Source of the DNA: an uncultured Chloroflexia bacterium
Lineage (GTDB): Bacteria > Chloroflexota > Limnocylindria > Limnocylindrales > CSP1-4
DNA: 64,000 bases
Reading direction: 5' to 3'
Assembly (NCBI GenBank): GCA_963832105.1
Contig: CAWHSS010000003.1
Coordinates: 472,131-536,130, forward strand
Part shown: piece after piece, positions 13,628 through 14,740 of the stretch
Position numbering within the stretch: position 1 is the stretch's first letter
Layout: each line of letters starts with the position of its first letter
Translations under genes and position numbers: made by a program
Notes under the pieces: generated by a model
What the model was told of the DNA's origin: nothing
Seen by the model: the letters and a program-made list of their open reading frames with translations, nothing else
Database searches by the model: none

Positions 13628-14740
13628 TCACGCCGCGAACCGCCGCAGGGCAACTTCGTCGAGAACCGCACCGATCCCCGGACGCTGCGGGACGCGCAGG
13701 ATGCCGTCGGCGTCGGGCCGAAGCGGCTCGGCGAGCATGAAGTCGCGCCGCTCGGGGGTCCAGCCGGGCGGGTCGTACGGAAACTCGATGAACGGTCCGC
13801 CGCCGACGCCCGCCGCGACGTGCAGATTCGCGAGGAGCCCAATACCGTTCGTCCACGTGTGCGGCGAGTACCAGCGGCCCTTCGCCAGGGCCAGCTCCGC
13901 GACCCGTCGGCCGTTCGCCATTCCGGCGGCGAGGACGACGTCCGGCTGGTGGACGTCGAACGCGTCGGCGTCGATCGCCGCAGCGATCTCGCGGAACGTC
14001 CGTGTCATCTCACCGCCGGCGATCTTGATGCCCGGGACTGCCTTCCGCAGCGCGGCAAGTCCCGCCAATGTCAGAGCCGTCGAGCGGCTCCTCGAGCCAG
14101 AGCACATCGAGCTCGGCCAGCTGCGAGGCGATCGAGCGCGCGGTCTCCCAGTCGATCGCGAGCGTCGTGTCGCCGGCCATCCGCCAGCCCTGATTCAGGT
14201 CGACCATGATCGTCCATCGTGTCCTCGACCGCGTGACGGGTCGCGGTCACCGCGGCGAGGCCGTCCTCCAGCCGGCGCGGATCCACCCGGATCTTGAGGG
14301 CCCGGAATCCCTCCTCGCGAAGACGCAGCGCGGACTCGGCCCGAGCCGCGGGAGGCAGCAGCGAGCCGCACGAGGCATAGGCCGGTATGCCGTCCGACGC
14401 TCCGCCGAACATCGTCGCCACCGGCACGCCCTCGACCTGACCGGCGATGTCCCACAGCGCGACCTCGAGCGGCCAGTACCGTCCGGCGTGGAAGTCGATC
14501 GTCTCGAGGACCCGGACGTGACGGGCGATCGCCAGCGGATCCTCGCCGACGAAGAGGTGCTCGAACGCCTCGAAGCCGTCCATCGTGTCGCCCGATCCGA
14601 TGCCCACGAACGCCCTCGTCGGTCTCGACACGCACGACCGTCGCCGCGAACGTGCTCCGCGGAACGGGATCCCAGGCGGCATCGAACGGCGGATCGAGCG
14701 GCTCGACGAGGCGATCGAGCCGGATGGCGGTGATCTTCAC
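13628..14740 (-). pseudogene. Enolase-superfamily enzyme (mandelate racemase/muconate lactonizing family), 3 frameshifts
   Basis: Stitched from ORFs 14195..14944 (VKITAIRLDRLVEPLD...), 14071..14682, 14010..14207 (MVDLNQGW...LWLEEPL) and 13628..14107 (KIAGGE...HTWTNGIG...). Confidence 0.75.

Follow-up and report, generated by a model that had tools for sequence, protein, structure and literature searches.

In soil and water, betaines together with choline and carnitine serve as important osmolytes and as sources of nitrogen and carbon. A well-known precedent for an enolase-superfamily enzyme encoded beside a betaine importer is HpbD, the 4-hydroxyproline-betaine 2-epimerase and proline-betaine racemase, which belongs to the subgroup named after muconate lactonizing enzyme (MLE) and has its catalytic Lys164 and Lys266 after barrel strands 2 and 6 (PMC3950512; bioRxiv 10.1101/2022.03.03.481873). 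Its metal ligands are Asp194, Glu219 and Asp242, and its binding residues Asp293 and Trp312 hold the quaternary ammonium of the substrate (PMC3950512). An aerobic, cobalamin- and MttB-dependent demethylation route was described only in 2025 (PMC12478193), and no enolase-type gene is mentioned in the MtgBCD paper of 2025. Here we analyse a gene of the enolase superfamily, of the mandelate racemase (MR)/MLE type, that heads a methylated-amine operon in Chloroflexota DNA of the order Limnocylindrales (assembly GCA_963832105.1, contig CAWHSS010000003.1, positions 472,131 to 536,130 of the forward strand; this stretch of 64,000 nucleotides is referred to as the window).

By its active-site residues the encoded protein is not an HpbD-family member. 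It belongs, as judged from sequence, to a sharply defined, uncharacterised variant family of the MR subgroup that is marked by K-x-R at barrel strand 2. We propose that it is a Mg2+-dependent MR-subgroup enzyme which would carry out a single-base β-elimination or cleavage of a betaine-type or omega-amino hydroxy-acid substrate and so feed an aldehyde step, and we give this proposal about an even chance. Cleavage or dehydration is more likely than racemisation. A literature search found nothing on the K-x-R enolase family.

The K-x-R family within the mandelate racemase subgroup

A preliminary description of the locus had recognised an MR/MLE-type enolase-superfamily gene, and this assignment is borne out: the read-through protein matches the Pfam domains MR_MLE_C (2.6e-49) and MR_MLE_N (4.2e-05), and the motifs then quoted, DLNQGW, LWLEEPL and KIAGGE, are all present. 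An AlphaFold model (predicted local distance difference test, pLDDT, 95.8) has the two-domain fold of the superfamily, with an N-terminal capping domain and a C-terminal modified TIM barrel, and gives template modelling (TM) scores of 0.83-0.88 to solved members. The strands of the model follow the expected order, and K149/R151, D180, E216, E243, D266, H293 and E318 occupy the ends of barrel strands 2 to 8. MR-subgroup proteins give the best fold matches (3BJS, 4HPN, 2OVL, 3SJN, 3OZM/3OP2, mandelate racemase together with its K166R mutant 1MDL, and L-talarate/galactarate dehydratase, TalrD). The top sequence relatives in the PDB are 4GGB/4HPN, 3BJS, L-talarate/galactarate dehydratase and 5OLC; mandelate racemase ranks lower, and the family profile agrees.

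The metal ligands D180, E216 and E243 are invariant among 60 sequences and align with those of 4GGB, 3BJS and TalrD. Neither H293 nor D266 varies in the two family alignments, and they lie after strands 7 and 6 of the model. With Asp266 following strand 6, His293 following strand 7 and Glu243 serving as the third ligand, the protein is assigned to the MR subgroup. The K-x-K motif that is usual for this subgroup at strand 2 is replaced by K149-x-R151, which puts Arg at the position that supplies the opposite-face base in MR-type racemases and in several dehydratases. Both the Lys and the Arg are invariant in alignments of 20 and 60 sequences (36-90% identity). Two of the 60 listed cluster representatives have K-x-K instead, and K-x-R is also missing from a few rows that align badly or look frameshifted.

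Mandelate racemase from Pseudomonas putida shares the two-domain fold, is among the top fold matches (TM 0.83-0.86) and has equivalents of nearly all the catalytic positions: its K164, D195, N197, E221, E247, D270, H297 and E317 correspond to K149, D180, N182, E216, E243, D266, H293 and E318 here. It differs in that its S-specific base K166 is Arg here, as in the K166R mutant 1MDL, in its 20s loop and other specificity residues, and in a genomic context that has no counterpart here, since nothing around the present gene relates to mandelate; identity is 22-24%. The best fold match, 3BJS from Polaromonas sp. JS666 (E 1e-29, TM 0.85), also has K-L-R at strand 2, but it is 25% identical and scores 204 bits against the family profile, where members reach at least 404. 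As a structure without known function it offers no assignment.

The closest characterised proteins by sequence and profile are the Agrobacterium tumefaciens D-galactarolactone cycloisomerase (4GGB/4HPN) and the 3,6-anhydrogalactonate cycloisomerases (5OLC/5XD7). These abstract an α-proton and then expel an O-linked β substituent, which is the type of chemistry proposed for the window enzyme. They differ from it in having K-x-K at strand 2, sugar-derived substrates and a sugar-catabolic context, and are 25-28% identical. L-talarate/galactarate dehydratase (2PP0) has the His-Asp dyad and the metal ligands in common with the window protein, but carries the base K197 where the K-x-R family has Arg. 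Fifteen dehydratase-type NCBIfam models match the protein, all far under their cut-offs; the best, L-talarate/galactarate dehydratase, gives 4.4e-33 and 114.7 bits against a cut-off of 500. The annotations "D-galactarolactone cycloisomerase" and "L-Ala-D/L-Glu epimerase-like" are therefore most likely wrong. We also rejected assignment to any named acid-sugar dehydratase or cycloisomerase (TalrD/GalrD, AraD, GalD, RhamD, ManD and others), as the equivalog cut-offs are missed by far.

The preliminary description had proposed an HpbD-like racemase or epimerase. HpbD (2PMQ, 4J1O) is indeed of the same superfamily and also adjoins a betaine importer and N-demethylases, but the comparison otherwise goes against this claim. 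The Lys/Lys pair and the Asp third ligand of HpbD are missing: Asp266 takes the place of Lys266 after strand 6, His293 stands after strand 7, and the third ligand is Glu. At the second position of the strand 2 motif the window protein has an invariant Arg; Lys164 of HpbD may correspond either to K149, which is kept, or to R151. None of the HpbD structures 2PMQ, 4H2H, 4E8G, 4IZG and 4J1O is among the best 60 of 133 or the best 60 of 188 PDB sequence matches, or among the best 50 fold matches. Given the Arg at the opposite-face position, a two-base racemase mechanism appears unlikely.

The same description had named dehydratase-like relatives and the lack of a betaine cage as grounds for dropping its claim. 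To the letter this is what was found, since among characterised proteins acid-sugar dehydratases and cycloisomerases come nearest, but the scores against those dehydratase families lie far below the cut-offs. As for the cage, the residues specific to the relevant clade are charged, not aromatic. A Trp after strand 8 (W326) is present, and it is invariant in the sugar-linked clades too. Conserved tryptophans occur family-wide and are therefore uninformative on a betaine cage; the aromatic cage was accordingly set aside as a diagnostic.

The family is well separated from other members of the enolase superfamily. A profile built from 60 members gave 553-609 bits for members in three test genomes and at most 240 bits for other enolase paralogues, and members sampled from other phyla scored at least 404 bits. 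Family members were present in 58 of 401 Actinomycetota and 5 of 401 Bacillota genomes sampled. In a maximum-likelihood tree of 66 members one clade (support 100/99), referred to here as amine-linked, holds every member that adjoins amine, C1 or aldehyde genes, including the orthologue of the window protein (P0002). Other clades hold the members found in sugar clusters (Fucose_iso_C, GH31, SBP_bac_1 importer) and those found in further contexts. Eight residues, P17, D24, R28, H84, M187, D190, R246 and R330, are invariant inside the amine-linked clade and rare outside it, and all are present in the window protein. Most of them occupy classic specificity positions, in the 20s flap and in the loops after strands 3, 5 and 8.

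One 90%-identity cluster, that of P0133, mixes enolase-family proteins of 370 amino acids with proteins of 175 amino acids that are named formaldehyde-activating enzyme (Fae). These are probably fused or mis-called genes with no real similarity. In Gaiellales the Fae gene stands immediately upstream of the enolase-family gene.

Genomic company of the amine-linked clade

Eighty related species loci from Limnocylindrales were compared, with denominators that differ per neighbour. The typical gene order is ENO-ALDH-(ABC1)-MttB-DMGDH-SoxA..SoxB-SoxD-FeADH, where ENO stands for the enolase-family gene, ALDH for aldehyde dehydrogenase, DMGDH for dimethylglycine dehydrogenase and FeADH for iron-containing alcohol dehydrogenase. 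The ALDH gene lies directly downstream of ENO in 57 of 72 related loci, and 8 of the other 15 have MttB next, as does the window; in most Limnocylindrales ALDH is translationally coupled to ENO. An MttB gene is found no more than 7 kb away in 46 of 51 loci, and a DMGDH gene no more than 10 kb away in 46 of 48. The divergent neighbour upstream is an OpuAC-type importer (26 of 61), an SBP5-type importer (18 of 61) or an IclR gene (15 of 61). The link of the gene to betaine and methylated-amine catabolism holds across the 80 related loci, and it recurs in Actinomycetota and Bacillota.

Of the partner enzymes, the ALDH most resembles two omega-aminoaldehyde dehydrogenases, KauB and PuuC. The MttB that accompanies ENO is a distinct paralogue that scores about 650-668 bits where the commonest one reaches about 760, and it is almost confined to the same two genera as ENO; its PDB matches (4YYC and MtgB, 2QNE/9YCE) cannot tell glycine betaine from carnitine as substrate. 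For the FeADH partner the NCBIfam models for choline, 4-hydroxybutyrate and lactaldehyde enzymes all score about 230 bits, far below the cut-offs, and do not discriminate between these functions.

Other phyla show different arrangements. Actinomycetota have OpuAC..ENO-ALDH-FeADH or, at L140 and L141, DMGDH-EtfBA-MttB-DMGDH-ENO, with MttB and DMGDH 67-76% identical to the Limnocylindrales ones. At L140 these two are 67% identical to Limnocylindrales whereas ENO is only about 47-50% identical, a pattern suggesting that the demethylase pair has passed laterally from one phylum to another. Pontibacillus marinus has ENO-FeADH with ALDH nearby; the loci of Gaiellales and Paenibacillus thalictri are given in Table 1. 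The lyase-like gene of the latter scores 477 bits against a cut-off of 510. In most amine-linked contexts, then, ENO has an enzyme that handles aldehyde or formaldehyde as its neighbour; L140 and L141 are the exception, since no such gene was found there.

The 80 loci were not counted as 80 independent observations, because the gene is confined to two genera in the sampled class and the synteny they share is, for the same reason, largely inherited. Independent evidence of a functional link comes from the other phyla, where the association recurs in different gene orders. A family with an altered catalytic motif thus accompanies demethylases, aldehyde or formaldehyde dehydrogenases and betaine-type importers in Chloroflexota, Actinomycetota and Bacillota. 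Such co-travel in three phyla points to an unrecognised step in the handling of the carbon skeleton and perhaps to an unrecognised substrate. The family occurs in cultured bacteria (Paenibacillus thalictri, Pontibacillus marinus and further halophilic bacilli) and folds with high confidence, which makes the question directly testable; Paenibacillus thalictri would allow the pathway to be studied in culture.

Proposed reaction and its alternatives

We propose the following mechanism. The substrate carboxylate would be bound by the metal, and H293, activated by D266, would act as the single base and take either the α proton or a β-hydroxyl proton. The resulting enediolate would be stabilised by Mg2+, K149 and E318. 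With the opposite-face Lys replaced by Arg, reprotonation from the other face would not be expected, and the enediolate would lose or split off its β substituent in a dehydratase, lyase or cleavage step. In the cell, an imported betaine-type compound or omega-amino hydroxy acid, or its demethylated product, would be converted to an aldehyde-forming intermediate that the translationally coupled ALDH of most relatives could take up, while MttB, DMGDH and the Sox-like oxidase would remove the N-methyl groups.

Several substrates would fit this scheme. One candidate is the carnitine-type 3-hydroxy-4-aminobutyrate skeleton, which before or after N-demethylation might be dehydrated to an aminocrotonate and then hydrolysed to succinic semialdehyde; it is suggested by the aldehyde-handling neighbours, by the coupled ALDH and by the closeness of this ALDH to KauB and PuuC. 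Others are a retro-aldol reaction of carnitine to betaine aldehyde and acetate, and the loss of trimethylamine from a β-trimethylammonio acid. The aspartase-like neighbour in Paenibacillus suggests an aspartate-type skeleton as a further candidate.

The retro-aldol reaction of L-carnitine to betaine aldehyde and acetate would match the Limnocylindrales order ENO-ALDH-MttB-DMGDH-Sox exactly. A bolder form of the proposal is that the amine-linked clade is the first case of an enolase-superfamily enzyme making its Mg2+-stabilised enediolate by C-C or C-N cleavage of a betaine-type acid, and not only by removal of a proton. Examples would be this retro-aldol reaction and the trimethylamine loss named above. 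We regard this as a long shot. If true, the retro-aldol reaction would provide an entry from carnitine-type compounds into glycine-betaine demethylation that is independent of oxygen and of CoA.

Several points weigh against an elimination or cleavage that feeds an aldehyde step. The window locus and about 15 of the 72 relatives are without an adjacent ALDH gene, and an ALDH orthologue was not found in the source genome, where the best match (C3:541164-542408, about 5 kb past the right end of the window) is 44% identical. Only two genera contribute the 80 Limnocylindrales loci, and in a sample of 201 genomes of the class the gene is present in 2 of 44 genera. MttB genes occur in 12 of these 44 genera; sister genera that have MttB and are without the enolase-family enzyme imply that the latter is not needed for glycine-betaine demethylation itself. 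The enzyme is accessory and stands outside the core machinery of that process. Partner genes differ between phyla, so that a single common reaction is an assumption, and Arg or another residue such as H84 could serve as a second base.

An alternative is that the enzyme racemises or epimerises a chiral amino-acid betaine, such as proline betaine, hydroxyproline betaine or hercynine, similar in function to HpbD but arisen independently in the MR subgroup, with H293 and one of R151, K149 or H84 as its bases. The gene heads a betaine operon opposite a betaine-type importer, which is the context in which HpbD was discovered, and mandelate racemase has all catalytic positions in common with the window protein except K166. 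Stereospecific lyases could also need a racemase as partner, and two are candidates: the lyase resembling histidine ammonia-lyase (HAL) but lacking the 4-methylideneimidazole-5-one (MIO) group that is also encoded in the window, and the aspartase-like protein in Paenibacillus. However, K166 is the very position where the family has an invariant Arg, the Lys/Lys pair and Asp ligand of HpbD are absent and HpbD itself falls outside the best 60 sequence and best 50 fold matches, and a racemase would leave unexplained the aldehyde- and formaldehyde-handling neighbours in most contexts of the clade. We consider racemisation unlikely.

A more conventional view makes the protein an ordinary dehydratase or cycloisomerase of acid sugars or hydroxy acids without a chemical role in betaine catabolism, its operon position being gene order inherited in two genera. 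Its nearest characterised relatives, the galactarolactone and 3,6-anhydrogalactonate cycloisomerases and the talarate/galactarate and galactonate dehydratases, would fit this, as would the distant family members in Fucose_iso_C, GH31 and SBP_bac_1 importer clusters and the presence of the gene in only 2 of 44 genera. But the NCBIfam scores are far under the cut-offs (115 against 500 at best), and the sugar-linked members form a separate, well-supported clade while the amine-linked clade has invariant charged residues of its own. The recurrence of N-demethylation, aldehyde or formaldehyde genes and of OpuAC or SBP5 importers in three phyla with different gene orders, and the translational coupling of ENO to ALDH or MttB, also speak against this view. 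We therefore judge an ordinary dehydratase decidedly unlikely.

Locus layout and frame breaks

The features of the locus are collected in Table 1. As the preliminary description had it, the enolase-family gene is the first of the minus-strand operon, and betaine-type (OpuAC-type) ABC importer genes lie opposite on the plus strand. The enolase-family stop and the MttB start share GTGA, which indicates translational coupling. The read-through product has 369 amino acids and the intact orthologues 369 codons; a TTG at 14752 is an alternative start, and one close orthologue is called from this upstream TTG. The nearest proteins are 79-93% identical, 369-373 amino acids long and all intact, and come from soil and freshwater metagenomes and from metagenome-assembled genomes (MAGs) labelled Limnocylindrales (Chloroflexota).

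Table 1. Coordinates of features in the window and, where a locus is named, in loci of other phyla
Feature	Position	Strand	Remarks
Enolase-superfamily gene	13628..14740	(-)	GTG start 14740, TGA stop 13630-13628; four frame segments
20s-loop flap, capping domain	14657..14695	(-)	DPPFDAAWDPVPR; W23 invariant family-wide; D24, R28 invariant only in amine-linked clade
DFHAGRYWP	14470..14496	(-)	H84 invariant only in amine-linked clade; candidate extra acid/base or binding residue
Barrel strand 2, ALKIRVD	14281..14301	(-)	K149-x-R151 replaces KxK of mandelate racemase (K164/K166)
Barrel strand 3, MVDLNQGWRMAGD	14169..14207	(-)	Metal ligand D180, N182, clade-specific D190; contains DLNQGW
Barrel strand 4, LWLEEPL	14082..14102	(-)	Metal ligand E216, then E217
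Barrel strand 5, KIAGGEMTR	14000..14026	(-)	Third metal ligand E243 (Glu, MR-like; Asp in HpbD); R246 clade-specific
Barrel strand 6, DVHQPDV	13937..13957	(-)	D266, Asp of His-Asp dyad; second catalytic Lys of HpbD sits here
Barrel strand 7, SPHTWTNG	13844..13867	(-)	H293, predicted general base
Barrel strand 8 and next loop, FIEFPYDPPGWTPERRD	13742..13792	(-)	E318 (MR E317), family-wide W326, clade-specific R330
First single-base insertion	14608	(-)	Extra T in GCGTTCGTGG; frame shifted after about codon 44
Second single-base insertion	14213	(-)	Extra A in GATGGACGATC
Third single-base insertion	14069	(-)	Within GACATTGG; frame of first segment restored after it
GTGA overlap	13628..13631	(-)	Enolase-family stop and GTG start of MttB-family gene
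MttB-family methyltransferase gene	12020..13631	(-)	Downstream; distinct paralogue co-occurring with enolase-family gene
Divergent intergenic region	14741..14868		128 nt; separates enolase-family operon from ABC importer operon
Divergent ABC importer	14869..18703	(+)	ATPase with CBS domain, two permeases, OpuAC-type binding protein; frame-shifting indels present
Gaiellales loci	L085 8345-12246; L086 8365-12243		SBP5-type importer, class-III-type ADH (alcohol dehydrogenase, formaldehyde-dehydrogenase-like), Fae, ENO, class-III-type ADH
Paenibacillus thalictri locus	L088 4910-14139		Sigma-54 two-component system, OpuAC, ABC importer, ENO, aspartate-ammonia-lyase-like gene, ALDH, formaldehyde-dehydrogenase-like ADH

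The reading frame of the gene is interrupted. Three frame breaks had been reported before, and DNA alignment to three intact orthologous genes from other assemblies finds exactly three, each consisting of one extra base. Single-base indels of this kind, mostly insertions, occur about once per 600-700 bases in all nine operon genes and in the importer when these are compared with an Illumina-derived orthologous contig. The genes affected include those for MttB, DMGDH, the Sox-like proteins, FeADH and the importer; examples between positions 4800 and 15800 of the window lie near 12891, 11872, 11840, 11423, 10719, 10158, 9739, 9556, 7689, 6955, 5275 and 5195. No nonsense substitutions were seen in the enolase-family gene relative to the intact orthologues, and its ratio of nonsynonymous to synonymous substitution (dN/dS) against them is 0.08-0.12. 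All 41 of 41 residues invariant in the 60-sequence family alignment are kept. The source genome comprises 4 contigs with a marker-gene completeness of just 71.9%.

We read the three insertions as errors of a noisy long-read assembly of a Limnocylindrales MAG. This reading rests on the presence of indels in every operon gene, the lack of nonsense changes, a dN/dS of about 0.1, the retention of the invariant residues and the low completeness. The living cell probably carries an undamaged gene. A true pseudogene, killed in the source organism by the three single-base insertions that break its frame, is very improbable, since the same type of indel runs through all operon genes and the importer, nonsense substitutions are absent, dN/dS is about 0.1, all invariant residues are kept, and a completeness of 72% in 4 contigs is what would be expected if indel errors break marker genes. 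The indel density and the 71.9% completeness also mean that annotation of this assembly based on open reading frames will be badly fragmented.

Some further observations concern neighbouring genes. The source genome encodes three more MttB-family paralogues (C3:239277-240767, C3:571613-573110 and C3:143215-144618). In related operons a PhdYeFM antitoxin gene stands between MttB and DMGDH (L001 14258-14494; L003 4337-4983), accompanied in L003 by a PIN-domain toxin gene; the antitoxin gene is absent from the window. The ABC1 gene, of the UbiB-type kinase-like kind, is found between ALDH and MttB in L002 (13220-14929) and about 20 other loci. In Gaiellales a second, unrelated MR/MLE paralogue adjoins the IclR gene. 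The full order at L140 (36-9122) is DMGDH-like, EtfB, EtfA, MttB, DMGDH and ENO.

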